A stretch of 45,878 bases of DNA, taken from a virus. The stretch is from the IMG/VR virus record IMGVR_UViG_3300047311_000827; one strand, given 5' to 3'. Shown here one piece after another: positions 5,632 through 45,878 of this stretch; the stretch's first letter is position 1; the number at the start of each line of letters is the position of its first letter. A program made the position numbers and the translations under genes. A model generated the notes under the pieces. The model saw only the letters and a program-made list of their open reading frames with translations, was not told the DNA's origin and made no database searches.

Positions 5632-6921
5632 TTACTTGACGTCCACGACCTTGCCGACGTGGATGGGCACGTTGCCCGGTTGACCTGAGACGTTGCAGAC
5701 GATGACCACCATGTCGCGAGGCATCTCGTGCTTCGCGGGCCACGGCGTGATGCAGTCGGTGATCAAGACCATCATGTTGTAGCCCTTCTCCTCGGCGTAC
5801 TTGAAGGCGAGACGCATGTCGGTGCCGCCGCCGCCCTTGAGGAGTTTCTTGATCGCCTCGGCGTCACTCACGGACGCCACCTCCTGGATCTTCGCATCCA
5901 CCGCGAAGCACTCGCATGCGCAGTTGACCGCCTTCAAGATCCCCGCGGCCTCGCTCACCGCGGAGACCAGCAGGCCGGCCATACTGCCCGAGGTGTCGAT
6001 CGCGATCGCGGGCCGCGGTACGCGGGAGATCGTGCTCGGCAACACCGGCGCCTTCGATCCCCACAGGCCTGCGACCGCCCAGCTGCGACGCGACGGCCGA
6101 CGATACGAGAAGTCCGTGGCGCCCTTGACCACGTTGATGCCGTGACGGACGTGCGCGGCGAGTTGCTTGCGCCAGTCGATCGTCGGCGGCTTCAACTGCT
6201 CGTTGGCCCACACGGCCCAACTGCCCGGGACCGTTCCCGGCTGCTGACCACGGATCGCCTCGGCCGTGGTCTTGCGGATCACGCCCTGCTCGATCTCGTT
6301 GTTCTTCGACACGTCGCACGCCTTGCCCTCGATCGGATCGGGGTTCGATGCGCAACCGCCGCAGCGACCGCCCGCTCCGGGCATCGGCTTGCCCAACGTG
6401 ATCTTGACGATGCGGCCGTCCTTCACCGCCTTCTCCGCGCCCTCCAGGAGTGCGAGCACGTAGAACTCCATGGTCTTCCTCTCGGGGAACTTAAACAGCC
6501 GCGGCGTCAACGGCGTGAAGCCGACCGGCCACGCGAATCCCGTGGCCAAGATGTCGTCGTTGATCTCGAGGTCGCCCGCGTAGTTGCACAACGCGTGCAT
6601 GGACTCGATGCCGTACATCGCCATCAACGCGTCCCTCACCTGGTCGTAGCGCGAAGAGATCAACGGCTTGATCGCGTTGCCGCGGGCGTGATGCTCCCGC
6701 TCGTTGTGCTGCAACTCGTGGAGCTGGACCGTGGCCGCGCCGTCCGGCCCGATCGCCTCGGCGAAGTCGGGGTCGTAGAACATGCGCGACCCCTCATCCA
6801 CCGCGAACGTACCGAGACCCTTCGACTCGACGGGCTTGAGATTGTAGACGGCCGTCGTGAACCACGTCAAGATGCTGTGGATCTTGAGACGGCCTGCGGC
6901 GAGGATCGAGAGACCCCTCAT
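5632..6921 (-). CDS. VWA-domain protein with N-terminal HExxH metallopeptidase-like domain (DUF2201-type, MoxR partner)
   Basis: Frame 5632..7053 trimmed to the ATG at 6919-6921 (ATGA overlap). It has HELQH with downstream EREHH, and a MIDAS motif AIDTSGSM. The C-terminus GGGTDMRLAF...MVLITD is typical of VWA. Confidence 0.75.
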   Translation of the reverse strand: MRGLSILAAGRLKIHSILTWFTTAVYNLKPVESKGLGTFAVDEGSRMFYDPDFAEAIGPDGAATVQLHELQHNEREHHARGNAIKPLISSRYDQVRDALMAMYGIESMHALCNYAGDLEINDDILATGFAWPVGFTPLTPRLFKFPERKTMEFYVLALLEGAEKAVKDGRIVKITLGKPMPGAGGRCGGCASNPDPIEGKACDVSKNNEIEQGVIRKTTAEAIRGQQPGTVPGSWAVWANEQLKPPTIDWRKQLAAHVRHGINVVKGATDFSYRRPSRRSWAVAGLWGSKAPVLPSTISRVPRPAIAIDTSGSMAGLLVSAVSEAAGILKAVNCACECFAVDAKIQEVASVSDAEAIKKLLKGGGGTDMRLAFKYAEEKGYNMMVLITDCITPWPAKHEMPRDMVVIVCNVSGQPGNVPIHVGKVVDVK

Positions 6922-7463
6922 GACTGCACCCCCTTCTTCTTCGCGATGCGGTTGTACTCGTCGGAGATCGCCGCCTGCTCGGCCGCGTACATCTCCCTCA
7001 TCCCCTTCAGCACCTCGCCCATGTCGCCCGTGAGGTCGAAGGCGAGGGCGCACTCGTCCGCGGACTTGATCGCGTCCTGGACGCGCTTCATGTGGACCGA
7101 CGCGTAGGCGCCAGCCTTCTTGAAGTCGAGATCATTCCACGACTTCTTGACGGCTGAAAGTCTGCTCTTCGCGACGCTGACTGTGTGGTCCAACGCCCTG
7201 CGGATGCGGCCCGCCTCCTCCATCATCGCGATCTTCGCCATGCGCATCAGCGAGTCCTTCTCATTGGAGTCGAAGCGGACGATCTCCACCTTCGCGCCCT
7301 TGCTCGTCATCTCGTTGATCGGCAGGAGGGCCACGCGGCCCTCCGGCACGATCCAGCACGAGTAGTTGATGCGGACGCCGTGGCGCTTGAACTGCTCGCT
7401 AGGATTGACGATCTCCTTGGTGAGCCGCGCCGGGATGTCGTACACGATCAGGTAGTAGTTCAT
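6918..7463 (-). CDS. Hypothetical protein with Cas2-like (ferredoxin-fold) N-terminal motif and helical C-terminal half
   Basis: MNYYLIVYDIPARLTKEIVNPSEQFKRHGVRINYSCWIV parallels the Cas2 signature (y.lv.YDI......r.....L...G..r.Q.SVf). It sits between the MoxR and VWA genes. Confidence 0.4.
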   Translation of the reverse strand: MNYYLIVYDIPARLTKEIVNPSEQFKRHGVRINYSCWIVPEGRVALLPINEMTSKGAKVEIVRFDSNEKDSLMRMAKIAMMEEAGRIRRALDHTVSVAKSRLSAVKKSWNDLDFKKAGAYASVHMKRVQDAIKSADECALAFDLTGDMGEVLKGMREMYAAEQAAISDEYNRIAKKKGVQS

Positions 7464-7488: not shown

Positions 7489-8649
7489 TTACTTCTTGTC
7501 GAGGGCGATGCCGCTCGCGTTGATCACGGGGTTGACGATCGCCGCGATCTTGACGACGAGCGGGTTGTCGGCCCAGTTGGACGGACGGTTCTTCTCGTTG
7601 ACGAGGATGCGCGTCGCGATCGCGACGAAGTCCTCGCCCATCGGCAGAACCTTGTCGAGCAGAGGCCACGCGGCCGACCAGCGCCGCTTGTACTCGGCGG
7701 TCTTCTTGTTGTCCGCACGGACGGCGGCGCGGCCGATGGCGCCGCACACCGCGAACGTGATGTCGGGACGGTCGGCCTTCGGATTCCACTTCACCTTGCC
7801 GTCCAGGAGGTCGTCGGCGTTGGGGAGGTTCATCTCCTTGCGCGCCTTCTCGAACTGAATGCCGCACGGCTCGCCGATCGTGCCGATGGCGATCGTCGGC
7901 AACAGGTCCTCCATGTCCAGCGCGATCGCGGTCGCGTAGAGGTTGACGAGGTTGCGCCACGACCGGATGGTGGCGTACGCCATGGGGAACCGCCCGCGGA
8001 TCGCGGCCGGCGACTCCTTAGGAAGCGCGCCGAGTTTCCTCGCGTAGCCCTCGACCACGGACTGCACGTGGTCGTACGCGATCTGCCGCTTCTCGGGATC
8101 AACCTTCTCCAACGCGGGCACGTTGTCCTCGCCCGCCAGGTGGGCGAGGAACTCGGTGAGGTCCGGGCCGTCCGTCTGCACGTGCTGCAGGCGGTTGGCT
8201 AGCGGGTACGGCATCTCGGTGCCGTTGGCCGCGGTCTCCGGCGGGTTGCCGATCAACATGTGCCGCGCGGTGTCGGGCAAGTAGTCGTCGTCGATCGCGC
8301 CCTCGTGGACGATGCGCATCGTCGCCGCTTGACACGCGGCCGGGCTCGACGTGATCTCGTCCCAGATGATCAGCGTCGGTTCGCCCTTCATCGCGTCGTG
8401 GAACCACTGCGGCTTGAGGTGCTTGGTGTACTCGTTCTTCTCCGACGGGTACGGCGTACCGCCGATGTCGGTCGGGTCCATCATCGACGTGATCAGAACG
8501 TTCTTCCGCCACTTGTAGCTTTGGGCGAGCGCGTACGCGGCGCTCGTCTTGGCGGTGCCCGGGTCCGACCAAATCATGAGAGGCGGCGCGACATTCTTCG
8601 GCGTCTGCAGGTTCACGTGCATCAGGCGGATCAACTGTTTGAAGTTCAT
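7489..8649 (-). CDS. MoxR/CbbQ-type AAA+ ATPase
   Basis: 386 aa. Walker A-like SDPGTAKTS, Walker B TLIIWDEI, then MRIVHEGAIDD...LIGNPPE. It is adjacent to a VWA partner. Confidence 0.75.
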   Translation of the reverse strand: MNFKQLIRLMHVNLQTPKNVAPPLMIWSDPGTAKTSAAYALAQSYKWRKNVLITSMMDPTDIGGTPYPSEKNEYTKHLKPQWFHDAMKGEPTLIIWDEITSSPAACQAATMRIVHEGAIDDDYLPDTARHMLIGNPPETAANGTEMPYPLANRLQHVQTDGPDLTEFLAHLAGEDNVPALEKVDPEKRQIAYDHVQSVVEGYARKLGALPKESPAAIRGRFPMAYATIRSWRNLVNLYATAIALDMEDLLPTIAIGTIGEPCGIQFEKARKEMNLPNADDLLDGKVKWNPKADRPDITFAVCGAIGRAAVRADNKKTAEYKRRWSAAWPLLDKVLPMGEDFVAIATRILVNEKNRPSNWADNPLVVKIAAIVNPVINASGIALDKK

Positions 8650-11089: not shown

Positions 11090-11530
11090 GTGGCCGACCA
11101 CGATCTTCTCAAGCGGATGTTCGAGATGCAGCACGATCTCCAAGCGCGACTCGGGACGCCGATGATCGGCGACGACGCGAGGCGGAAACGCGGCGGCATC
11201 CGGATCAACTCACTCGCGGACCTCAACGAGACCGACCGCGCTGTGATCAAGAAGTGGCACAAGGAGTTCTCGCTCGCGCTGATGATGGAGGCGAGCGAGT
11301 TGATGGACTGGAGTCCGTGGAAGCACTGGAGCTCGCGACTCGGCAACAAGGCGGAGATCACGTTCCTCGGACCCGACCACCTGCGCGAGGTCCACATGGA
11401 GATCGTGGACTGCTTCCACTTCCTGATCGATCTCGCCTTGCTGTACGGCTTCACCGCGGAGGATCTCTTCGAGACGTTCGCCGAGAAGAACGCGATCAAC
11501 CACCGCCGCCAGGACGGAGGCTCGTACTAA
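11090..11530 (+). CDS. All-alpha NTP pyrophosphohydrolase (dimeric dUTPase/dCTPase-MazG type)
   Basis: 146 aa, GTG start with an AGGAGG SD. MQHDLQ...EFSLALMMEASELMDWSPWKHW...EVHMEIVDCFHFLIDLAL...FAEKNAINHRRQ fits the dimeric dUTPase pattern (E..E....WK.W....E.vD..hF.......K...N..Rq). Confidence 0.7.
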   Translation: MADHDLLKRMFEMQHDLQARLGTPMIGDDARRKRGGIRINSLADLNETDRAVIKKWHKEFSLALMMEASELMDWSPWKHWSSRLGNKAEITFLGPDHLREVHMEIVDCFHFLIDLALLYGFTAEDLFETFAEKNAINHRRQDGGSY

Positions 11531-12042
11531 TGATCATCGTGGAGGGAGTCGATCGCGTCGGCAAGTCGAGCTTGGTGAAGGTGCTCGCACGGAACCTTGG
11601 ATTCAAGATCGTTCACTGTGTCGTCCCGCCGGACGGCGAGAGCGTCTTCGACTACCACATGCGCATGATCCAGGACGGCGAGGACGCGATCGTCGATCGC
11701 CTCCACTGGTCGGAGTACGCGTACGGCGAGACGTACCGCCAGGGATGTGGGTACACGAAGAAGCAGTGGCGTCAGCTCGAGGACGAACTCCAGGCGGCGG
11801 AGGCTGGCGTCATCCTTCTCAGCGACTCGCTCAAGCTGATCCGCGAGCGTTGGGGACCGGAGGAGCAGTTCGACGTCGCCGGCCTCGTGCGGCTCGACAG
11901 TTTCTTCTTCGACGTGTTCTTCAACCGCGCGCCGTTCAAGTCCGACCTGCCGCGGCGTCACTACAACTGGCGTGACTTCTTCAACCCCGACGGGTCCGAG
12001 CGCGGCGACGCCTTGAAGACCATGACGAAGTCGCTGTGGTGA
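11530..12042 (+). CDS. P-loop deoxynucleoside monophosphate kinase (thymidylate-kinase-like)
   Basis: The ATG overlaps the upstream TAA (TAATG). MIIVEGVDRVGKSS matches the Tmk P-loop pattern (EG.DG.GKsT). Confidence 0.6.
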   Translation: MIIVEGVDRVGKSSLVKVLARNLGFKIVHCVVPPDGESVFDYHMRMIQDGEDAIVDRLHWSEYAYGETYRQGCGYTKKQWRQLEDELQAAEAGVILLSDSLKLIRERWGPEEQFDVAGLVRLDSFFFDVFFNRAPFKSDLPRRHYNWRDFFNPDGSERGDALKTMTKSLW

Positions 12043-12482
12043 AGGACATGCGGCTCGGGGTTGACGAGTACTTCATGCAGATCGCCCACGCGACCAAGAC
12101 GCGATCGACCTGCCCACGCGCCCAGGTGGGAGCTGTCCTCGTGTCTGACGGTAGGATCGTGAGCGCCGGATTCAACGGCGCGCCTCACGGGGCGCCTCAC
12201 TGCAGCGAGTTCGGGTGCTTCATCGTGGACGACCACTGCCGCGGGGCGGTCCACGCCGAGATCAACGCCCTGCTCCACGCCGAGAAGTACGGCGACACGA
12301 TCTACGTGACCCACACGCCGTGCCTCGAGTGCCTCAAGGCGATCATCAACCACGGCGTCATCCGCATCGTCTACGACCTGGACTACCGTGACGACGCGCG
12401 CGAGCAGTTCATCGGCTGGCTCGCGAACAACCCGACCACGAAGGTCCGGCTGGTGATGCAGCGGATCAGGAGGGAGTCGTGA
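12036..12482 (+). CDS. dCMP deaminase (ComEB/cytidine-deoxycytidylate deaminase zinc family)
   Basis: RSTCPRAQVGAVLV...GFNG...HAEINAL...THTPCLECLKAI. GTG at 12036, or ATG at 12048 (MRLGVDEYFMQIA). Confidence 0.85.
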   Translation: MVKDMRLGVDEYFMQIAHATKTRSTCPRAQVGAVLVSDGRIVSAGFNGAPHGAPHCSEFGCFIVDDHCRGAVHAEINALLHAEKYGDTIYVTHTPCLECLKAIINHGVIRIVYDLDYRDDAREQFIGWLANNPTTKVRLVMQRIRRES

Positions 12483-12976
12483 GCGAGCTGACGAAGAACG
12501 AGGAGGCCGCGATCACCGCCTTCAACGAGGCCACCGGGCACGTCGCTCACAACTACGGCACGCGAGCCTCCATTGCTGTCGGCCGCGAGCTGATTAGGCT
12601 CCGCGCCCGCATCGCGGAGCTGGAAGCCGAGACGAAGCGCGCGCGGGACTACTCCATCCACATGGATGGTCTCCTGCGTGCGGAGGAAGCCCGCATCGCG
12701 GAGCTGGAGCGGGAGCGGGACGCCTTCGGGGCTGGGTTGGACAAGGCCAACCACAAGCGGGCCGTCGCCGAGTCACAGCTCGCCGCTGCGCGGGAGGCGC
12801 TGAGCAACGTTCCGCATGAGGACCACTGTCTAGCGGACGCCGTGACCATCGGCCCCGCCGGCATCCGCGGCATCGTCAAGCGCGGGGGAGACCCCGACGC
12901 ATTCCCGCAGCCCTGCACTTGTGCGTTGGCCGCAGTCCGCGCCGCTCTCGACGGGCTCGGGGAGAAAAAGGCGTGA
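12479..12976 (+). CDS. Hypothetical coiled-coil protein
   Basis: 165 aa. The GTG overlaps the upstream stop (GTGA) and has an AGGAGGGAG SD. Confidence 0.6.
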   Translation: MSELTKNEEAAITAFNEATGHVAHNYGTRASIAVGRELIRLRARIAELEAETKRARDYSIHMDGLLRAEEARIAELERERDAFGAGLDKANHKRAVAESQLAAAREALSNVPHEDHCLADAVTIGPAGIRGIVKRGGDPDAFPQPCTCALAAVRAALDGLGEKKA

Positions 12977-13881
12977 ACTACCTCGGCTCGTTCCCGTCGA
13001 TGGATCAGGCGTACCCCATCCTGGTGAGCCGAGTCGTCAAGGACGGCGAGAGGCTGTCGCCTCGCGGGATGGTGTCGATCGAGATGAGGCCGGCGTCGTT
13101 CACGATCACTGATCCGACACGGGCCGTGTACACCGGCGAGAAGCGCAAGATGAGTTACAGGTTCCTCGCGGTCGAGACGCTCAGCTACCTGGCGGGTCTC
13201 GGCGACGAGAAGACTGCGAAGCTCCTGGTCGCGGTGAACAAGAACCTCGATCCATACCTCAACAAGTTGACGATGAAGTTCGACGGCGCCTACGGACCGC
13301 GGCTCAGGCAGAGTCTCCCGGCGGTGGTCGCGCTCCTCGATCGAGATCGCGACAGCAGGCAGGCGGTCGCCGCGATCTGGTCTCCCGGCATACCGGAGTC
13401 GATCGACGTCCCATGCACCGTGTCGCTGCACTTCTACGTCGCCCACGACAAGCTCGAGATGACGGCCTACATGAGGTCCAACGATCTGATGTGGGGAACG
13501 CCGTACGACGTCGCGGCCTTCTGCATCCTGCAGCAGGCGGTGGCGAAGAGCCTCGGCCTCCAGGTGGGCGCGTATCACCACGTCGCCGACTCGCTCCACG
13601 TCTACCAGGAGCGCGTGCCCGACGTCAAGGACGACAAGACGATCGACCTGCCGTTCGAGCCGTTCAAGAAGATGGTGTGCGAGTCCATGCACCCGAGCTC
13701 GATCATCCGTCACATGATGGATGACTCGGCCGACCTGATCAAGCAGATCTACAGGTTCTTGAACCTCGACAGCATCGACGGTCCACCGAAGACCGCCAGC
13801 CACCTGCGGTTCTTGTTCGGGCAGTCCAAGGACCCGGTGGAGAACGCGTGGGTACGCATGCTCAACGGGAAGTGGCTGTGA
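12973..13881 (+). CDS. Thymidylate-synthase-fold enzyme with Asp at the dUMP-specifying Asn position; predicted dCMP hydroxymethylase/methylase-like
   Basis: Frame 12919..13881 trimmed to the GTG at 12973 (GTGA overlap). It aligns without gaps to E. coli ThyA from Cys146 to residue 181: PCTVSLHFYVAHDKLEMTAYMRSNDLMWGTPYDVAAF against [37 protein letters not shown]. The later motif is SLHVY. Confidence 0.7.
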   Translation: MNYLGSFPSMDQAYPILVSRVVKDGERLSPRGMVSIEMRPASFTITDPTRAVYTGEKRKMSYRFLAVETLSYLAGLGDEKTAKLLVAVNKNLDPYLNKLTMKFDGAYGPRLRQSLPAVVALLDRDRDSRQAVAAIWSPGIPESIDVPCTVSLHFYVAHDKLEMTAYMRSNDLMWGTPYDVAAFCILQQAVAKSLGLQVGAYHHVADSLHVYQERVPDVKDDKTIDLPFEPFKKMVCESMHPSSIIRHMMDDSADLIKQIYRFLNLDSIDGPPKTASHLRFLFGQSKDPVENAWVRMLNGKWL

Positions 13882-14981
13882 GGGCGATCGGTTACTTGGT
13901 CGGCGGCGGCTCGATGTCGCTGGGCGTCGAGGCGGCTGGGTTCGAGATCTCCGGCGTGTGGGAGACGCCCGGTTACTCGAAGAACGCTCAGTCGTGGGAT
14001 CTCAACCGCCCGATGCTCGCGCACTCGGTCCAGGAGGTCCGCGCTGGGTCTCGATTCCTGGGCGGTGACGACGTGGATCTGATCTACGGCAACCCGCCGT
14101 GTGGAGGTCTCTCCAACACGACGGGTGCTCAGCACACGAGTCCCACGAACCTCGTCATGCAGAACTGGTTGGGGATGGTGATCAAGGCGAGGCCTCGCGC
14201 GATCCTGATGGAGAACGCGTTCCAGCTCGCCACCGGGGCCGGCGCCCCGATCCGCGATCTCCTCGGCTCACAGCTCGACGACGCGGGCTACAAGTCGACG
14301 ATCTGGCTGATCGACTCCTGGGAGCTCGGTACGCCTCAAGTCCGGCGGCGCGCGTTCCTGGCCGCGGTCAAGGAGGGCTCGATCGTTGACGTCAAGTGGA
14401 GCGTGCCCTACCAGTTGAGGGAGGAGAACTCGTATCCCAAGGAAGTGTGGGCGGAGACGCGCTTGATCGACGCCGACCCGAGCCCCAGTCCCTTCTACGA
14501 CGTCGCCGGGACCAAGATCACGCAGCACTGGTGGAACAAGACGGGCTATCAGCACAACGAGCTGCTCAAGGAACATGGCGATCGGATCACGCTCGGCAAG
14601 TTCCTCACTCCTCACGAGCTCAAGATGCTCGAGGCGCGCGCGGCGGCCGGAATCAAGTCAGCGAAGCGAGAGATCGAGAAGCGGATGCCATTGCTCTGGC
14701 CTGAGGTGCCGCGCGCGTTCTCGAAGCCCAAGCAGTTCAAGGTGATCAGGCGGCTCAGGGCCGAGGCCCCGAGCTTCGTGGTGCTGTCGGAGTTCAACCT
14801 GGCTCACCCGACCTTGAACCGCCTCCTCACGATGCGCGAGATGGCGCGGCTCATGGGCTACCCGGACGACTGGGTGTTCCACGTCCTCCACCCGCGGCTG
14901 GTCGCGCAGGGGGTGCCCGTGGCGAACGCGAGATGGGCGGCGTCAAGGCTCATGGAAGCCTTGACGGCCGCCCACTCGTGA
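13878..14981 (+). CDS. DNA (cytosine-5) methyltransferase
   Basis: GTG at 13878 (GTGA overlap). Motifs: I YLVGGGSMSLG; IV YGNPPCGGLS; VI LMENAF; VIII TPQVRRRAF; IX RLLTMREMARLMGYPDDW; X AQGVPV. Confidence 0.85.
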   Translation: MRAIGYLVGGGSMSLGVEAAGFEISGVWETPGYSKNAQSWDLNRPMLAHSVQEVRAGSRFLGGDDVDLIYGNPPCGGLSNTTGAQHTSPTNLVMQNWLGMVIKARPRAILMENAFQLATGAGAPIRDLLGSQLDDAGYKSTIWLIDSWELGTPQVRRRAFLAAVKEGSIVDVKWSVPYQLREENSYPKEVWAETRLIDADPSPSPFYDVAGTKITQHWWNKTGYQHNELLKEHGDRITLGKFLTPHELKMLEARAAAGIKSAKREIEKRMPLLWPEVPRAFSKPKQFKVIRRLRAEAPSFVVLSEFNLAHPTLNRLLTMREMARLMGYPDDWVFHVLHPRLVAQGVPVANARWAASRLMEALTAAHS

Positions 14982-14982
14982 G

Positions 14983-15387
14983 CTAGACGCCGAACGCCTT
15001 GTCGACGTGAGGCTTCAGCCAGCCGTCCCACAGGACCTTGGCCATCCCGCTGTGGAGGAAGCCGAGCAGGAGGTTGGTCGCGAAGTTGTGCGGCTGGCCT
15101 CCGCCGGTGGCGGCGAGCGCGTTCGTGACGCCGCCCAGTGTCCCTAGGATATAGAGCACGACGTTGACCCAGGGGATGAGATCGTTGGACCAGTTCTTGG
15201 CGAAGGGCGCGAACTTCCAGATCATCCCGACTGCAACCATGATCAGCACCGCACTGCCCTTCAACCACGCGAGCAGGTTGACGGCGATCTCGGGATGGAT
15301 GGGCGACGGCGCCGGCGGCGCCTGAGCGAGGACGGTCGCGGCAACGAACAGCCCGACAACCGCCAGAAGCAGCTTGAGAATCTTCAT
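14983..15387 (-). CDS. Membrane protein with signal-like N-terminus and about 3 TM segments (holin candidate); last gene of the minus-strand unit
   Basis: MKILKLLLAVVGLFVAATVLAQA..., then hydrophobic stretches SAVLIMVAVGMIW and VNVVLYILGTLGGV. AGGAGG SD. Its position is next to the endolysin. Confidence 0.5.
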   Translation of the reverse strand: MKILKLLLAVVGLFVAATVLAQAPPAPSPIHPEIAVNLLAWLKGSAVLIMVAVGMIWKFAPFAKNWSNDLIPWVNVVLYILGTLGGVTNALAATGGGQPHNFATNLLLGFLHSGMAKVLWDGWLKPHVDKAFGV

Positions 15388-16389: not shown

Positions 16390-17154
16390 TCACTCAGAAT
16401 CGGGTCCGTCTGACTCGTCCTCCGGCGTGCCGGAGCCAATCCCGAAGCGGCCGAGGAGCGTCGCGGCAACGGTCCCGGCGATCGCCGACTGGAGGAGGCC
16501 GGACGCGCCCTTGGCCATCGTGTGGTTCATGGACGCGACCACCTGCTCGTGGAGCATCGCCGGCAGCACCTCGTTGGTGGTGTGGATCGCTACCGAGTAG
16601 AAGTGGAGACGGCGCTGGATGTCCTCGGACGCCACGAACCGATACAGGGTCTTGATCGCGCCGCCCTCCCTGATGAAGACGCCGCGGTTCTTGATCACGA
16701 ACACTGGTCCCATGGGCGACGTGCCGCGAAGTTGCGATCCCTGGCGGTGGAGGTTCAGTCGGCTGAGGTACATCCCTGGAGGGACGCTCTCCCTCTGTGA
16801 CGGCCTGGCGCCGCCCACGATCGGGATCGCGATGTTGGCGCCCAACTCCGGATGCTGGCTGCCGCCCTCCTCGAACTGCGAGAGCCTCAACCTCTTCTTC
16901 TGCCCGATGCGGATCATCGCCCACATGCGTCCGACCGTCGGCCTGGCGAACGGCTTGATGATCGCGATCTGACGGAGGATGAACTTCGACTTCCTCACGG
17001 TGACGTCTTCCTGGATCTTGAGGCGCTGCCTCTCCTGTATGAGTTTCATCGTCGCGTTGATCGAGTTGGAGATGGCATACGCCTTCTGGCGCTCGCTGAG
17101 GAGTAGGGCTTCCAGGACGAAGTTGTCCTTGAGTTCCGCCTCCATGGTGACCAT
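16390..17154 (-). CDS. Hypothetical protein (254 aa), possible virion/morphogenesis protein
   Basis: The ATG overlaps the upstream stop (TGATG). It lies between the tail genes and the lysis genes. No firm motif. Confidence 0.6.
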   Translation of the reverse strand: MVTMEAELKDNFVLEALLLSERQKAYAISNSINATMKLIQERQRLKIQEDVTVRKSKFILRQIAIIKPFARPTVGRMWAMIRIGQKKRLRLSQFEEGGSQHPELGANIAIPIVGGARPSQRESVPPGMYLSRLNLHRQGSQLRGTSPMGPVFVIKNRGVFIREGGAIKTLYRFVASEDIQRRLHFYSVAIHTTNEVLPAMLHEQVVASMNHTMAKGASGLLQSAIAGTVAATLLGRFGIGSGTPEDESDGPDSE

Positions 17155-17588
17155 CAGACGGGGAGGAGGCCGTCCTGCCCCATGTACAGCTTGTCGGTCT
17201 CATTCTCGTACACGACCCACGCATCGACCGTGACGCTGGGAACGTCCGGTCCAGCCACTGCGGCGACGAGACGCAGTGTGATATACGGCCAGCCCATGTA
17301 TGGAACACCGGTCGCCACGGTGATGACCACTGGCATCGGGTTCGTGAGGCTGAGTACGTGACCGCTCACGCCGTCGCCGAGAAGGTTGGTACCTGCCGGG
17401 TTGAAGAAACCGCCGCTCCCCGTGCCAGATCCAATCCACGTGCACGGCTGCGGCGCACCGCCGCCGTTGCCGTACACCAGGAAGTGAATGGCCTTTGCAC
17501 CCAGACACGGGATGTACTTCGTGAACAGCTGGTTGTTGGTCACGAGAGTCTGGTTGTCGATGACCTTCGGGTATTTGAACGTCTTCAC
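17154..17588 (-). CDS. Small tail-module protein, paralog B of a tandem pair
   Basis: 144 aa, GTG start with a GGAGGTG SD. About 60% identical by eye to the 17601-18047 product. Confidence 0.65.
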   Translation of the reverse strand: MKTFKYPKVIDNQTLVTNNQLFTKYIPCLGAKAIHFLVYGNGGGAPQPCTWIGSGTGSGGFFNPAGTNLLGDGVSGHVLSLTNPMPVVITVATGVPYMGWPYITLRLVAAVAGPDVPSVTVDAWVVYENETDKLYMGQDGLLPV

Positions 17589-17600
17589 CGCGCACCTCCG

Positions 17601-18047
17601 TCAGGCCGGCAGCAGTCCGTCCTGACCGTTGACCAGCTTGTCAGTCTCGTTCTCATAGATCACATAGGCATCGACAGTGACGTTGGTGACGTCGTTGGCT
17701 GGAGACGCGCCGGCGTTGCCGATCAGTCTCAAGATCAGGTAAGGCCACCCAAGATAGAAGAGACTGGGGGTGGGGTAGAACGTGACTGACATCGGGTTCG
17801 TCGGAGTGAGGGCGTGGCCGTTCACGCCGTCGGCGGTCGCCAATCCAGCGGGTGCGAAGAATCCTCCGCTAGGAATCCCTGATCCGATGGTGTTGATGGC
17901 CTGAGGCGCGCCGCCTACGGCAGCTCCGACAACGAGGAACACAATCGCCTTGGCTCCCTGGCACGGGATGTACTTCGTGTTGAGTGCGCCGCCAGCGGCA
18001 ACGAGCGTCTGGTTGTCGATGACCTTCGGGTACTTGAATACCTTCAC
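17601..18047 (-). CDS. Small tail-module protein, paralog A of a tandem pair
   Basis: 148 aa, GTG start. It shares MK(V/T)FKYPKVIDNQTLV...TKYIPC.GAKAI.FLV...GGAPQ...GWPY..LRL...TVDA.V.YENETDKL..GQDGLLP with its neighbour. Confidence 0.65.
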   Translation of the reverse strand: MKVFKYPKVIDNQTLVAAGGALNTKYIPCQGAKAIVFLVVGAAVGGAPQAINTIGSGIPSGGFFAPAGLATADGVNGHALTPTNPMSVTFYPTPSLFYLGWPYLILRLIGNAGASPANDVTNVTVDAYVIYENETDKLVNGQDGLLPA

Positions 18048-38106: not shown

Positions 38107-38472
38107 TCACCCCAGCTTACTTGGATCGTCGGCGTCTTGCCGCCTCCCTTGGTACGAGTGCTGTCCGGGTTGCCACCGTGGCCGTGGTGCTTGTGCGGCT
38201 TTGAGGCTGACATCAGCATCAGCATCAGCAATGAGACGATCAAGATCGTGATCCTTCGCATCGTCCTTCCTCCTCTGCTCTACTACGCGCCTCTCGTCGT
38301 CCAGCAGCATCTCGGTCTTCATCAGCCTGCGCGCTTGGTCGAAGAAGTGGGCGCCGCCATCTGGCTCGATCGACTCGAATACCTGTGTCGAGATCTTCAT
38401 CTCCACGCTCAGCGTGCGACTGTTGTGGGTCGTCGTCACCACGACGTGGTAGTAACCCCACTCGCTCACCAT
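38107..38472 (-). CDS. Hypothetical protein
   Basis: Frame trimmed to the ATG at 38470-38472. 121 aa with an acidic and Arg-rich tail. Confidence 0.5.
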   Translation of the reverse strand: MVSEWGYYHVVVTTTHNSRTLSVEMKISTQVFESIEPDGGAHFFDQARRLMKTEMLLDDERRVVEQRRKDDAKDHDLDRLIADADADVSLKAAQAPRPRWQPGQHSYQGRRQDADDPSKLG

Positions 38473-38903
38473 GTCCTCTCCATCTCGGCCTTCCACTTGC
38501 TCCCAGACTGCATCGCGACCATGGCCGCCGCGTCCTCGATCGAGCGCGCCACCATGGCGATCGCGCCGTTCTGGTGCACGTCATCCAGGAAGTCGCGTTG
38601 ATCCTCGCTCACCATGCCGTCCTTGGTCTTCGCCTCGATCCAGATCGAGCGCCCGTTCGGCGCCACGCCGCACACGTCCGAGATGCCTCGGCGATTGTTG
38701 AGCTTGCGATAGCCCAGGAACTTCACGTTGTCGCCCGACCTGGACAACTGCATCGTCGGCTGATTATTGAATCGAACTGCCACGCACCCGTGAAGAGTGA
38801 GCAGCTCCAAGATCGCTCTGATCAAGCTCGTCTCGATGCCGCGATTCTTCCTGGGAGATCTCTTCCCCACGTCAGTCCCCAGTCTATCCGGATGCGCAGT
38901 CAT
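38466..38903 (-). CDS. VRR-NUC domain nuclease
   Basis: SLIRAILELLTLHGCVAVRFNN...GISDVCGVAPNGRSIWIEAKTKDGMVSEDQRDFLDDVHQNGAIAMVARSIEDA fits D...iE.K...ls..Q..f......G......s.eea. Confidence 0.75.
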   Translation of the reverse strand: MTAHPDRLGTDVGKRSPRKNRGIETSLIRAILELLTLHGCVAVRFNNQPTMQLSRSGDNVKFLGYRKLNNRRGISDVCGVAPNGRSIWIEAKTKDGMVSEDQRDFLDDVHQNGAIAMVARSIEDAAAMVAMQSGSKWKAEMERTW

Positions 38904-38990: not shown

Positions 38991-39364
38991 GCCTCACCTC
39001 CGTTGAACATGTCCTCGAGCTTCAGCTCCTTGATCATGTAGCGCACTGCGTCAGCCACTGCTGCCTTGTCGATCTTCATGAACTCGACCGAGGCCTCGAC
39101 CGTGGTGTACATGTCGATCTTGATCTTGGCCTTGGTCATCACGCCTACCCAGATCTTGCCCTCCTCGGCCTGCATGATCGGCATGTCCGTGGGCATGAAC
39201 ACGAACGAGGCCTTCTTGCCGTGGATCGTCATCGGCACCGTGATCATCGACTTCGACACCGTCGCCCCTGTTGGCGCGGGATAGATCACGCCCGGTGTGT
39301 AGGTCACGCCCGGGCTGAACATCGGGTTCGAAGGCAGGTGACCGCCCTTGATGTCCTGATTCAT
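38987..39364 (-). CDS. Hypothetical protein
   Basis: 125-aa tail of frame 38987..39595, ATG at 39362-39364 (ATGA overlap). Confidence 0.55.
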   Translation of the reverse strand: MNQDIKGGHLPSNPMFSPGVTYTPGVIYPAPTGATVSKSMITVPMTIHGKKASFVFMPTDMPIMQAEEGKIWVGVMTKAKIKIDMYTTVEASVEFMKIDKAAVADAVRYMIKELKLEDMFNGGEA

Positions 39365-40164
39365 CTCGCCTTCCTCAGCACCCAGGCGCAGTTGCTGGAC
39401 GCCATGGGATACTTGGGAGCCAGGAAGTTCGACAACACCTCGTTGCTCAGGAACTTCCCGAGCTCGTCCAGGAGCTGCCTCTCCTGCTCCGTGCAGGCCT
39501 TGCGGATCTTGTTCGCAGACGCGAACGTGCCGTGCACCGACTCCACGCGGAGACCCGCCTGGATGATCGCTGCGTTCAGCTCGTCGAAGTCCCACTCGTA
39601 GATGTGATTCGCGGCCTGAGCCTTCTTGTTATACACCGGCGTCGAGAGCAGGAACCTGGACTCGCTGTTCATGAAGCTCTCAGCAGCTGCCAGGAGCCTG
39701 AGACCGCGACGCTTGTTCATGTGCTCGATCACCTCGAAGCACGTGATCACGTCGAAGGTCTTGCTGATCTTCGAGATCTCCTGGTAGCGCTCCACGAAGT
39801 TGAACTCACCCAGGAAGTGAGCCCACCTGAAGTTGTAGTGAACGTCGATCTCGTTGATGTCCACGCCGACGTAGATCTTGGGCACCCAGCTCATGTGAGG
39901 CCTGCCCAGCACGTAGGCCAGCGTCTGATCGCGACCGCAACCGATGTCCAGCACCCGCGTGCCGTTGCCCACGAACCGGCCTGCCCAGCCGTAGCGGAAA
40001 AAGTGAGCCGCGTAGTCGCGGTGCACCGTCCTCGTGTAGTGCTTGGCCGGCAGGTACGTGCGATCGTAGTCCCTCTCCAGGTCGATGCCGTTCCTGGCGT
40101 TCAGCACGCGCACGCGACCGCCCCCTCGTGTGACCTTGATCCTCGGTCTCCCGCCCTTCGGCAT
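39361..40164 (-). CDS. Class I SAM-dependent methyltransferase
   Basis: ATG at 40162-40164 (the track start at 40167 is a TTG). Motif I is RVLDIGCGRD. Further motifs: DVITCFEVIEHM and FLLSTP. Confidence 0.75.
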   Translation of the reverse strand: MPKGGRPRIKVTRGGGRVRVLNARNGIDLERDYDRTYLPAKHYTRTVHRDYAAHFFRYGWAGRFVGNGTRVLDIGCGRDQTLAYVLGRPHMSWVPKIYVGVDINEIDVHYNFRWAHFLGEFNFVERYQEISKISKTFDVITCFEVIEHMNKRRGLRLLAAAESFMNSESRFLLSTPVYNKKAQAANHIYEWDFDELNAAIIQAGLRVESVHGTFASANKIRKACTEQERQLLDELGKFLSNEVLSNFLAPKYPMASSNCAWVLRKAR

Positions 40165-40427
40165 CAAGACGCCACCGCCTTCTTGGCGCGGGGCCTCTTG
40201 GGCGGAGCTTCGCCACGAAAGAACGGAGCCTTCCTCACCTCATAGTCCGGCGGCCACTTGTGCGTGGCTTGACGGACATACGACTTCACGCCCTTCTTCT
40301 TGAGCGCGGCCTGGCGCGCCAACAACTCCTCCTCCGGGATCAACGAGCTCCCGTCCTTGTCGACCAACACGAGAGCGATCCGGTCGTTCTGGTTCGCAAA
40401 GTCCTTCGTCTTCACGCCCGCCTCCAT
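40164..40427 (-). CDS. Small basic hypothetical protein
   Basis: 87-aa tail of frame 40164..40544, ATG at 40425-40427. Confidence 0.45.
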   Translation of the reverse strand: MEAGVKTKDFANQNDRIALVLVDKDGSSLIPEEELLARQAALKKKGVKSYVRQATHKWPPDYEVRKAPFFRGEAPPKRPRAKKAVAS

Positions 40428-40789
40428 TGTTCGTGCATCTCGGGTCTGATCAGCATCACCGGCTTCCCCAACTGCTTGGCCAGCGACACGACGTGAGCCG
40501 TGCCGCTGCTCTTGCCGTCCCAGAACGCGACCATCCTGCTGCACGTCTGGGCGATGGTCCGGTTGCGCTCGAGAGGCGCCCTGGGACCATGCTTCAGGTA
40601 GTCGGGCTTGATCACGACCACCATCATCTGCCTCAACCTGGCGACGCGCTCGGCCTCACGATCCACGCCGCGCGCGCCGCCCGTGATCACGATCGTGTGG
40701 TCGGGCAAGGCCATCAGGTAGGCCTCGACCATGCGCATGATCGGGTATTCCCTGCTGCCGACGACTGCGACTCGCTCGGCAGTGATCAC
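40412..40789 (-). CDS. DUF2493/SLOG-family protein
   Basis: GTG start (GTGA overlap). VAVVGSREY...VITGGARGVDREAERVA...VAFWDGKSSGTAHVV matches the SLOG/DUF2493 pattern. Confidence 0.7.
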   Translation of the reverse strand: MITAERVAVVGSREYPIMRMVEAYLMALPDHTIVITGGARGVDREAERVARLRQMMVVVIKPDYLKHGPRAPLERNRTIAQTCSRMVAFWDGKSSGTAHVVSLAKQLGKPVMLIRPEMHEQWRRA

Positions 40790-45751: not shown

Positions 45752-45878
45752 CTCCTTCTCCGCCACGACCATGATGTACTGACGCCTAGGCAGGAGGCTG
45801 TGCCTCATGAAGCCGTCGCTCGGCGCCGTCACTCGCTTCCAGATCACGCGTCTCACTTGCCGAACAGCTCCCTCACGT
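45752..45878. repeat. Terminal direct repeat copy 2 (exact copy of 1-127)
   Basis: See copy 1. Confidence 0.9.

Follow-up and report, generated by a model that had tools for sequence, protein, structure and literature searches.

A thymidylate synthase-fold gene of a 45.75-kb phage predicted to encode a dCMP 5-hydroxymethylase

The ThyA-fold gene at 12973..13881 (+ strand) of the virus record IMGVR_UViG_3300047311_000827 raises the question of which pyrimidine nucleotide its 302-residue product accepts and what group it attaches to the base. A first-pass annotation of the window, by which the whole analyzed stretch of 45,878 nucleotides is meant, had read the protein as a ThyA-fold enzyme whose preference was switched from dUMP to dCMP by an Asn-to-Asp exchange, a reading that receives in silico support from both multiple alignment and phylogeny. 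As argued below on the grounds of its PF00303 and MilA matches, its signature residues and its gene context, the protein is probably a dCMP-specific, folate-dependent pyrimidine C5-hydroxymethylase (5hm-dCMP synthase), analogous to gp42 of phage T4 and belonging to the lineage of MilA and SPO1 gp29.

Gene, start codon and fold

The gene is part of a plus-strand cassette in a circular phage genome of 45.75 kb, which also carries lambda-type terminase and portal genes. Its GTG start at 12973 is supported by the overlap with the stop codon of the upstream gene (GTGA), by a Shine-Dalgarno-like GGAGAAA motif located 7 nt upstream, and by the N-termini of homologs, which align to this start (window protein MNYLGSFPSMDQAY versus P0002 MHNIGTFKSFDDAY).

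The encoded protein belongs to the thymidylate synthase (TS) fold superfamily. Its match to Pfam PF00303 reaches 73.9 bits (E 1.5e-20; cutoff 24.3) and stops at position 220 of the 266 profile positions. Among PDB sequences, the CMP hydroxymethylase MilA is the top match (E 2.4e-20), and the AF2 model (pLDDT 93) matches TS-fold structures, with MilA again as the top Foldseek match (TM 0.70-0.74 over about 310 columns). A C-terminal helical extension of 80 residues is MilA-like and not ThyA-like. All superfamily residues, namely the Cys nucleophile and the equivalents of E. coli E58, Y94, R166, D169, H207 and Y209, are kept, and the catalytic set is complete in the alignment (E68, Y107, R129, C148, R168, S169, D171, H209 and Y211). 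Given the PF00303 and PDB MilA matches as well as the invariant Asp described in the following section, the resemblance to ThyA is not due to chance.

Specificity position and product-diagnostic residues

The catalytic nucleophile Cys148 (TGC, 13414..13416, +) corresponds to C146 of E. coli ThyA, C148 of T4 gp42 and C155 of MilA and occupies an invariant alignment column, also in 120/120 best homologs. Asp179 (GAC, 13507..13509, +) aligns with the pyrimidine-specificity position (E. coli N177, T4 D179, MilA D186), whose role has been described previously (PMC8670742, PMC5175136, PMC13326640). Both codons, read directly from the sequence, share the reading frame of the GTG at 12973, which numbers the residues 148 and 179, in agreement with the first-pass annotation. 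The gapless match that it had proposed between residues 148-183 and residues 146-181 of E. coli ThyA is likewise confirmed (14/36 identical), and the superposition of Asp179 on Asn177 holds in a multiple alignment with ThyA, gp42, MilA, SPO1 gp29, Xp12, PaMx74 and RB69 gp48, no alignment putting Asn at this position of the window protein. All of the 120 best database homologs share the Asp, whereas Asn occurs in E. coli ThyA, in the validated dUMP hydroxymethylase SPO1 gp29 and in the homolog from Montesquieu, a phage with an aGPT-Pplase (5hmdU-type).

The proposed similarity to T4 gp42 holds in part. The motifs MRSND and SLHVY are found letter for letter in T4 gp42, where E. coli ThyA has QRSCD and DTHLY, and the diagnostic residues point in the same direction, but the 36-residue segment itself is slightly nearer to E. 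coli ThyA than to residues 148-183 of gp42, with which it shares 11/36 residues in a gapless match. Moreover, the numbers 148 and 179 are indeed those of the T4 enzyme, yet this agreement is a coincidence, since identity to T4 gp42 amounts to only about 20% (19.8% over the core). With respect to the sugar moiety, Ser169 and Arg129 of the window protein represent the deoxy-type residues in a published rule (Ser167, Arg126'; PMC5175136) and thereby indicate a deoxyribonucleotide substrate, unlike Ala176 and Lys133 at these positions in MilA, which distinguish MilA/BcmA with their preference for ribo-CMP.

Concerning the product, rules based on diagnostic residues have been established for ThyA-fold enzymes (PMC13326640, PMC8670742). 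Asp145 (GAC, 13405..13407, +) occupies the position of E. coli L143, where an acidic residue correlates with a hydroxymethyl product (PMC13326640): Asp is present in T4, MilA, SPO1 and Montesquieu, Leu in E. coli, and Asn in Xp12 and PaMx74. This rule is correlative and of limited discriminating power, because the validated dCMP methylases carry Asn instead of Leu; a stricter version, according to which methylases always feature a bulky hydrophobic residue at 143, was rejected in view of Xp12 and PaMx74. The rule was applied in its positive sense only, that is, from acidic residue to hydroxymethylase; within the clade, three members have Met and three have Asn at this position. Asp171 (GAT, 13483..13485, +) corresponds to E. 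coli D169, and the exchange of this residue for Asn, which all validated 5hodCMP synthases carry and which marks the flavin-dependent 5-hydroxy-dCMP synthases (PMC13326640), is absent from the window protein and from 120/120 homologs, all of which have Asp. RB69 gp48, by comparison, combines E143 with N169.

At positions 80, 143, 147, 168 and 127 the window protein features L, D, T, N and Q, as opposed to W80, N143, P147, S168 and R127 in Xp12 and PaMx74. The combination of Asp143, Asp169 and Thr at the H147 position with the lack of Trp80 is common to the window protein, T4 gp42 and MilA. Furthermore, a tblastn search revealed no DHFR in the window at E below 0.1, whereas a DHFR gene adjoins the enzyme gene in both 5mC phages, Xp12 and PaMx74. 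Hence, Asp145, the missing Trp80, the lack of a detectable DHFR and the placement within the hydroxymethylase supergroup (see below) favor hydroxymethyl, to which the choice between methyl and hydroxymethyl can be narrowed in silico. The signature as a whole is likely that of a dCMP 5-hydroxymethylase and not that of an Xp12-type methylase, an RB69-type flavin synthase or a true ThyA.

Relatives and gene cassette

The closest characterized relatives are MilA and SPO1 gp29 at about 35% identity (35.7% and 35.5% over the core), while core identity amounts to 26-27% for Xp12/PaMx74 and 23% for RB69 gp48. The phylogeny that the first-pass annotation had suggested was computed as an NJ tree and places the protein in the hydroxymethylase supergroup; Xp12 and PaMx74 branch apart from it, nearer to ThyA. 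Support for the deep nodes of this tree is poor (bootstraps 1-61%). Membership in the sequence clade of T4 gp42 was considered and rejected, as gp42 forms a separate branch and direct comparison is too weak: a tblastn search of the window with gp42 detected residues 145-181 (37 aa) alone, at E 0.016. Megablast of the 9-20 kb region of the window against 50,697 phage records gave zero matches, so that the phage has no close cultured relative among these records; the top tblastn matches in cultured phages are dUMP hydroxymethylases of the SPO1 type. A scan of genome contigs returned six weak loci, all of them in MAGs, which offer no clue to the host.

Comparison with known systems delineates this lineage further. 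T4 gp42 (PDB 1B5E family) shares with the window protein the fold, Cys148/Asp179, Asp145, Thr149, the RSND and SLHVY motifs and the predicted reaction, and T4 also has the same gene partners, namely a dCTPase-like pyrophosphatase, a dNMP kinase and a dCMP deaminase. On the other hand, the window protein differs from gp42 in its lineage, in Gln for R127 and in the MilA-like extension, and its 45.75-kb phage, in which glucosyltransferases were not found and no DNA polymerase was recognized, differs from the T4-like myoviruses. MilA, the CMP 5-hydroxymethylase of Streptomyces rimofaciens (PDB 5B6D/5JNH), likewise has Asp at both 177 and 143 and catalyzes the hydroxymethylation that is predicted here, but serves bacterial antibiotic biosynthesis and not the synthesis of viral DNA precursors. 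SPO1 gp29 and related phage dUMP hydroxymethylases share the R-Q pair at 126/127, Asp143, RSND and a long C-terminal extension; they are distinguished by their substrate dUMP, by a specificity Asn that follows a one-residue insertion, and by Asn at 147. The dCMP methyltransferases of Xp12 and PaMx74 agree with the window protein in Asp at 177, in the substrate dCMP (predicted here) and in pyrophosphatase and deaminase neighbors, and differ, beyond the positions listed above, in the R126/R127 pair, a ThyA-like C-terminus and the adjacent DHFR gene. Finally, metavirome contigs with modified cytosine (MetaGPA, Yang et al. 2021; mSCD preprint 2024) encode Asp-type ThyA homologs that show the same signature, with 177 and 147 as the top discriminators, and co-occur with PRA-PH/MazG pyrophosphatase and dCMP deaminase. 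The linked decorating enzyme there is a carbamoyltransferase, whereas the accessory genes found here code for two methyltransferases, a C5 DNA enzyme and a class-I SAM enzyme.

The cassette, all on the plus strand, opens with an all-alpha NTP pyrophosphatase of the dimeric-dUTPase/MazG type (11090..11530; Pfam dUTPase_2, E 1.3e-13; PHROG 173), a candidate dCTPase/dUTPase that is 33% identical to the T4 gp56 dCTPase over 72 aa (E 1e-13). It is followed by a thymidylate-kinase-like P-loop dNMP kinase (11530..12042), a candidate 5hm-dCMP kinase with weak Pfam and NCBIfam dTMP-kinase matches and a PHROG 761 match (E 1.3e-10), homologs of which adjoin hydroxymethylase genes in 13/82 related loci and are also represented by gp29 of phage AXL3. 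The zinc-dependent dCMP deaminase (12036..12482; HAE...PCxxC; Pfam PF00383, E 5e-22; PHROG 174, E 1.9e-46) has counterparts that adjoin the hydroxymethylase gene in 30 of the 82 related loci. A module of pyrophosphatase, kinase and deaminase has been described in the literature as characteristic of viral contigs with modified cytosine. Between the deaminase and hydroxymethylase genes lies an ORF of 165 aa (12479..12976), translationally coupled on both sides by GTGA overlaps, for which neither a Pfam or PHROG family match nor a homolog in 162 related loci was found.

Downstream, the start of a DNA cytosine-C5 methyltransferase gene (13878..14981, +; Pfam PF00145, E 3.3e-28) overlaps the hydroxymethylase stop (GTGA). 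The enzyme is apparently active, judging from its sequence, in which PPC, ENA and QVRRR motifs are present; its PDB matches are M.HaeIII and DNMT1, and a C5 methyltransferase is found at the same position in a syntenic locus. An active C5 methyltransferase coupled to the hydroxymethylase gene would be hard to square with complete replacement of cytosine by 5hmC. Neither a second ThyA nor a homolog of the T4 beta-glucosyltransferase nor aGPT-Pplase was detected in the window by tblastn at E below 0.1, and NDP-sugar genes were not found in it. Pfam and PHROG searches revealed no TET/JBP, carbamoyltransferase, glycosyltransferase or DNA polymerase in the scanned ORFs, which covered the window apart from several tail-region ORFs (within about 17-27 kb) and some short ones.

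Predicted pathway, competing readings and a linked methyltransferase

In the proposed reaction Cys148 would, by analogy with the family, attack C6 of dCMP, while hydrogen bonding of Asp179 to N3/N4 of cytosine would select and activate this base over uracil. The methylene group of 5,10-CH2-THF would then be transferred to C5, and the resulting exocyclic methylene would be quenched by water instead of hydride, because the shield formed by Trp80 and Leu143 is absent and Asp145 is present instead, to give 5-hydroxymethyl-dCMP and THF. With THF as the product, DHFR would not be required. In the predicted pathway the gp56-like pyrophosphatase would hydrolyze dCTP (and dUTP) to the monophosphate, thereby depleting dCTP and feeding the hydroxymethylase. 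Phosphorylation of 5hm-dCMP by the P-loop kinase would be a step towards 5hm-dCTP, to be incorporated during replication, and the deaminase would channel some of the dCMP into dUMP and from there into dTMP synthesis. As no phage DNA polymerase was recognized, incorporation would rely on the host replicase. 5hmC, or a base derived from it, could thus take the place of most cytosine in the phage DNA, which would make this DNA resistant to restriction and protect it from host nucleases, a strategy already known from viruses.

Other activities of the fold have to be weighed against this assignment. A dCMP methyltransferase of the Xp12/PaMx74 type (5-methyl-dCMP synthase), for which CH2-THF would supply both carbon and hydride and which would introduce 5mC into phage DNA, is improbable, even though Xp12 and PaMx74 share Asp at the N177 position, N177D/N229D versions of true thymidylate synthases yield 5mdCMP (cited in PMC8670742), deaminase and pyrophosphatase also accompany the enzyme in 5mC phages, the L143 rule is correlative and the neighboring C5 methyltransferase indicates that 5mC is of use to this phage. 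What speaks against it are the differences at Trp80, N143, P147, S168 and R127, the separate branch with its low core identity, the MilA-like C-terminal part and the lack of a DHFR in the window. Acidic 143 residues and Asp at 177 are also common to the flavin-dependent 5-hydroxy-dCMP synthases RB69 gp48, DLP3 gp80 and HY126, whose 5-hydroxycytosine would serve as an anchor for glycosylation, and the flavin dCMP hydroxylases 9iqu and 9iqc are among the Foldseek matches (TMt 0.77-0.83); the Asp at D169, the low core identity to RB69 gp48 and the lack of glycosyltransferase and NDP-sugar genes among the scanned ORFs of the window nevertheless make such an enzyme very unlikely. Equally remote is an ordinary thymidylate synthase or dUMP hydroxymethylase. 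The name 'thymidylate synthase' in Pfam and PHROG, the SPO1-type top matches in cultured phages and the adjacent deaminase as a source of dUMP are in its favor, but it is contradicted by the Asp at the specificity position. As regards canonical ThyA (dUMP to dTMP) in particular, this candidate was rejected since the protein has L, D and T in place of Trp80, Leu143 and His147 and misses all NCBIfam thymidylate-synthase equivalog cutoffs by a wide margin (best 66 bits versus 327), which places it outside the true ThyA enzymes.

A further possibility, of rather low but not negligible probability, relates to what happens after the hydroxymethylase reaction and is compatible with the enzyme being a dCMP hydroxymethylase: 5hm-dCMP may be an intermediate only, either because the deaminase converts it to hm-dU nucleotides or because a SAM methyltransferase derivatizes the hydroxymethyl group, so that the virion base would not be plain 5hmC. 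Some phage enzymes of the dCMP deaminase family do deaminate 5hmdC or 5mdC nucleotides, but this activity was found in only 7/90 tested deaminases, those beside 5mC-type enzymes. The second branch of this argument involves a class-I SAM methyltransferase (39361..40167, - strand; Pfam Methyltransf_23), which may have an accessory role in the pathway. A ThyA-fold gene lies within 8 kb in 62/80 best IMG/VR loci of its family, with Asp at the 177 position in 62/62 of these genes and D143/D169/D177 in each of the 61 with complete active-site coverage, and the linked hydroxymethylases stem from at least two lineages. In the window, however, this gene is located 25 kb from the cassette, and its predicted structure yields generic class-I Foldseek matches only (FPP C-MTase, BioC, RebM and cap guanine-N7 MTase; TM about 0.5), for which reason its substrate is not inferable from the fold. 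Invariant motifs of the family are HRD..AH, FE.xEH, STP and AA.NH.

The tight linkage between this methyltransferase family and Asp-type hydroxymethylases may be new. It extends to the cultured phage AXL3, which has this operon as well, with the module and an enzyme of identical signature, and whose gp31 is 39% identical to the SAM methyltransferase of the window. AXL3 DNA resists 35/37 restriction enzymes, all 35 of which have G/C in their sites, including enzymes that tolerate some modifications, although its modification could involve G rather than C. On this basis it can be speculated, with a low probability, that the hydroxymethylase takes the first step of an undescribed cytosine hypermodification, in which the SAM methyltransferase acts on the 5hmC pathway, for instance by O-methylation to 5-methoxymethylcytosine; nothing relevant on this base was found in the literature searched.

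The Asp signature and the accompanying module have already been described from metaviromes, and the window protein is one more member of that population. Nevertheless, the gene and hundreds of its relatives are annotated as 'thymidylate synthase', and the PW916 copy as 'deoxyuridylate hydroxymethyltransferase', while their residues point to dCMP, so that such phages probably carry modified cytosine. Consequences would arise for the sequencing and cloning of their genomes, for restriction analysis and for CRISPR targeting, as well as for the evasion or triggering of host defenses. Moreover, the lineage with the R-Q pair at 126/127 and the MilA-like C-terminus is little studied, in contrast to the T4 enzyme, from which it is distinct, and, being devoid of a biochemically characterized dCMP-specific member, constitutes a useful target for enzymology. 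Through the SAM methyltransferase and its culturable carrier AXL3, a DNA base that may be new becomes directly accessible to experiment.

Active-site residues and predicted product of the ThyA-fold protein

The plus-strand ORF at 12973-13881 encodes 302 amino acids from a GTG start, which is supported by a GTGA that it shares with the stop of the preceding ORF, by a GGAGAAA motif ahead of it and by the aligned N-termini of homologs. In frame with this start, TGC at 13414-13416 encodes Cys148 and GAC at 13507-13509 encodes Asp179, as the first-pass annotation had read them. Residues 148-183 align without gaps to both E. coli ThyA 146-181 (14/36 identical) and the T4 dCMP hydroxymethylase gp42 148-183 (11/36 identical), so that Asp179 falls on ThyA Asn177, as proposed in that annotation, and equally on gp42 Asp179. 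The motifs it had named were also found in the actual sequences, MRSND and SLHVY in gp42 and QRSCD and DTHLY in ThyA.

By sequence, homology to the ThyA fold is far beyond chance, given the matches to Pfam PF00303 (E 1.5e-20) and, as best hit in the PDB, to the Streptomyces CMP 5-hydroxymethylase MilA (E 2.4e-20). The protein falls short of all NCBIfam ThyA equivalog cutoffs by a factor of about 5; it has a thymidylate-synthase fold, yet is no thymidylate synthase. MilA is its best solved relative both by sequence and by predicted structure, the AF2 model (pLDDT 93) aligning in Foldseek with a TM of 0.70-0.74 over about 310 columns, C-terminal helices included. Core identity amounts to 35.7% with MilA, 35.5% with the dUMP hydroxymethylase gp29 of phage SPO1, 26% with the Xp12 homolog, 23% with E. 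coli ThyA and 19.8% with T4 gp42. Hence, the shared numbering of Cys148 and Asp179 with gp42, to which the first-pass annotation had pointed, is real but coincidental, and the likeness to gp42 is confined to the diagnostic residues.

For these residues, enzymes of known or published product served as references: E. coli ThyA (dTMP), T4 gp42 (5hm-dCMP), MilA (5hm-CMP), SPO1 gp29 (5hm-dUMP), the Xp12 and PaMx74 ThyA homologs (5m-dCMP) and RB69 gp48 (5-hydroxy-dCMP). According to the published rules (E. coli ThyA numbering), Asn at position 177 selects uracil and Asp cytosine, position 143 is acidic in hydroxymethylases, and Asn at 169 occurs in flavin-dependent 5-hydroxylases only; position 147 is likewise diagnostic, while Ser/Arg at 167/126 denotes a deoxy and Ala/Lys a ribo substrate. 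The window protein features D177, D143, D169, T147, S167 and R126 and lacks Trp80, a pattern identical to that of gp42 and matched by MilA except at the ribose residues. Among its 120 best database homologs, D177, T147 and D169 are invariant and D143 is present in 113. Position 143 is Met in three of these homologs (P0078, P0079, P0106) and Asn in three others (P0026, P0041, P0057), all of the same clade and retaining Asp177; they may represent natural switches from a hydroxymethyl to a methyl product inside one lineage.

These residues support the reading of the Asp-for-Asn exchange as dCMP preference, and they bear on the competing products as well. A dCMP methylase, as in the 5mC phages Xp12 and PaMx74, would share D177; these enzymes differ by N143, W80, P147 and S168, and in a neighbor-joining tree they occupy a separate branch closer to ThyA, though deep nodes are weakly supported. 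Moreover, DHFR adjoins the methylase in both 5mC phages, while none was found on searching the window. A hydroxymethylase regenerates THF, not DHF, and the absence of DHFR therefore fits such an enzyme. Methylation is thus considered unlikely, and 5-hydroxylation, for which RB69 gp48 carries E143 and N169, still less probable. A uracil-specific enzyme is just as improbable on account of Asp177, even though the best matches in cultured phages are SPO1-type dUMP hydroxymethylases (30-37% identity). In the tree, a phylogeny having been called for earlier, the protein groups with hydroxymethylases: its clade of uncultured viral sequences (100% bootstrap) falls within the supergroup of MilA, SPO1 gp29 and the 5hmdU-type phage Montesquieu. 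Taken together, the protein is quite likely a hydroxymethylase, the best reading being a MilA/SPO1-like lineage of dCMP 5-hydroxymethylase within a T4-style precursor module. The initial observation is thereby confirmed and its interpretation supported. As the Asn-to-Asp signature and its tie to modified cytosine have been published (PMC8670742; 2024 mSCD preprint; PMC13326640), the enzyme is of the expected type and a further example of a known one.

Members of this large family are found essentially in viruses: a search of IMG/VR yielded 530 relatives with the MRSND...PYD motifs, whereas 185,579 prokaryotic species, one genome each, yielded six loci only, all weak.

Precursor cassette and coupled C5-methyltransferase

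The first 127 bases (1-127) recur at the end of the window (45752-45878), an overlap typical of the k-mer overlap of circular assemblies, which indicates that the phage genome is complete at 45,751 bp and either circular or terminally redundant. Its products include a terminase and portal of lambda type, an HK97-type capsid and an endolysin, and the same sequence is present in Logan assemblies. Almost all genes lie on the minus strand, the cassette at 11090-14981 being the sole plus-strand block. It comprises, in order, an all-alpha NTP pyrophosphatase (33% identical to the T4 dCTPase gp56 over 72 aa, E 1e-13), a P-loop dNMP kinase and a dCMP deaminase (both by family profile), an orphan ORF, the predicted hydroxymethylase and a DNA C5-methyltransferase, several of them joined by GTGA overlaps. 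Pyrophosphatase, kinase and deaminase correspond to gp56, gp1 and cd, the T4 precursor pathway alongside gp42, and such a module has been reported as a mark of cytosine-modified viral contigs in metaviromes. The orphan ORF (12479-12976; 165 aa, Ala/Glu/Arg-rich) overlaps both neighbours by GTGA, and has neither a family match nor a homolog among 162 related loci. A single base separates the last cassette gene from the stop of a convergent gene for a membrane protein on the minus strand (14983-15387).

From family knowledge and this context, Cys148 would attack dCMP at C6 while Asp179 would position and activate the cytosine, and the methylene of CH2-THF would pass to C5; the site being open (no Trp80) and polar (Asp145), the exocyclic methylene would be trapped by water to yield 5hm-dCMP. 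The cassette kinase and host NDP kinase would then form the triphosphate, while dCTP would be depleted by the pyrophosphatase, and dUMP for making thymidylate would come from the deaminase. No DNA polymerase, primase or helicase was recognised when the larger ORFs were scanned against Pfam and PHROG, so incorporation of the modified dNTP would rest on the host replicase. Among the ORFs examined, no glycosyltransferase, carbamoyltransferase, TET/JBP or second ThyA was recognised either.

The main oddity is the C5-methyltransferase (13878-14981, plus strand; intact PPC, ENA and QxRxR motifs), which is GTGA-coupled to the hydroxymethylase and would be without substrate if the DNA were fully hmC-substituted; with complete replacement of C, the two enzymes seem redundant. 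Since the identical arrangement occurs in one syntenic locus (L014), replacement may be partial, or the methylase may target other DNA. Homologs are found in 8/82 related loci.

Elsewhere, 7489-8649 encodes a MoxR-like AAA ATPase and 5632-7053 a DUF2201 metallopeptidase/VWA protein. Two adjacent paralogous minus-strand ORFs of about 145 aa (17154-17588 and 17601-18047), located downstream of the large tail gene, both start with MK(T/V)FKYPKVIDNQTLV and finish with YENETDKL..GQDGLLP; the likely explanation is a duplicated accessory protein of the tail or of receptor binding.

A SAM methyltransferase linked to the hydroxymethylase family

A class-I SAM methyltransferase (39361-40167, minus strand; Methyltransf_23) weakly resembles the O-methyltransferases UbiG and Hen1. 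Its predicted structure (pLDDT 90) matched generic class-I methyltransferases only and hence does not single out a substrate. Two genes upstream in the same minus-strand gene string lies a SLOG-superfamily protein with a YAcAr/DprA-like nucleotide-binding domain (40412-40789), and a VRR-NUC nuclease is encoded at 38466-38903. In the window, 25 kb separate the methyltransferase from the cassette, so that it is the comparative pattern alone that links the two here.

Homologs lie 1-3 kb from the hydroxymethylase in 14/82 related loci; co-location was noted among the loci L093-L172, L173 and L182, with L173 showing the order pyrophosphatase, methyltransferase, deaminase, ThyA homolog. Much stronger is the reciprocal test on the best 80 IMG/VR loci of 471 relatives found: in 62, a ThyA-fold gene lies no more than 8 kb away, usually with a dCMP deaminase next in line (52/80). 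Each of the 62 linked genes carries Asp177, all 61 that span the full active site combine D143, D169 and D177, and no Asn-type ThyA occurs in these 80 loci. Moreover, the linked genes span two hydroxymethylase lineages, window-like and T4-like.

The methyltransferase/hydroxymethylase operon is also found in two cultured phages, AXL3 of Stenotrophomonas and PW916 of Pseudoxanthomonas. In AXL3, the gene order is methyltransferase (gp31), pyrophosphatase (gp30), kinase (gp29), ThyA homolog (gp28; D143/T147/D169/D177) and deaminase (gp27), and a separate ThyX is encoded as well. Of 37 restriction enzymes, the 35 with G/C in their sites reportedly failed to cut AXL3 DNA, which was digested solely by the A/T-only cutters TasI and Tru1I (PMC7504290). 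These digests provide indirect experimental support that the Asp-type hydroxymethylase goes with modified G/C pairs.

The AXL3 findings also suggest a part for the SAM methyltransferase, whose linkage may be new, in producing the final base. Its family may act on 5hmC in turn, O-methylation being one possibility; methoxymethylcytosine found no mention in the literature searched. While the enzyme itself is of an expected type, the methyltransferase linked to it and phage AXL3, which can be cultured, are the part that deserves experiment.
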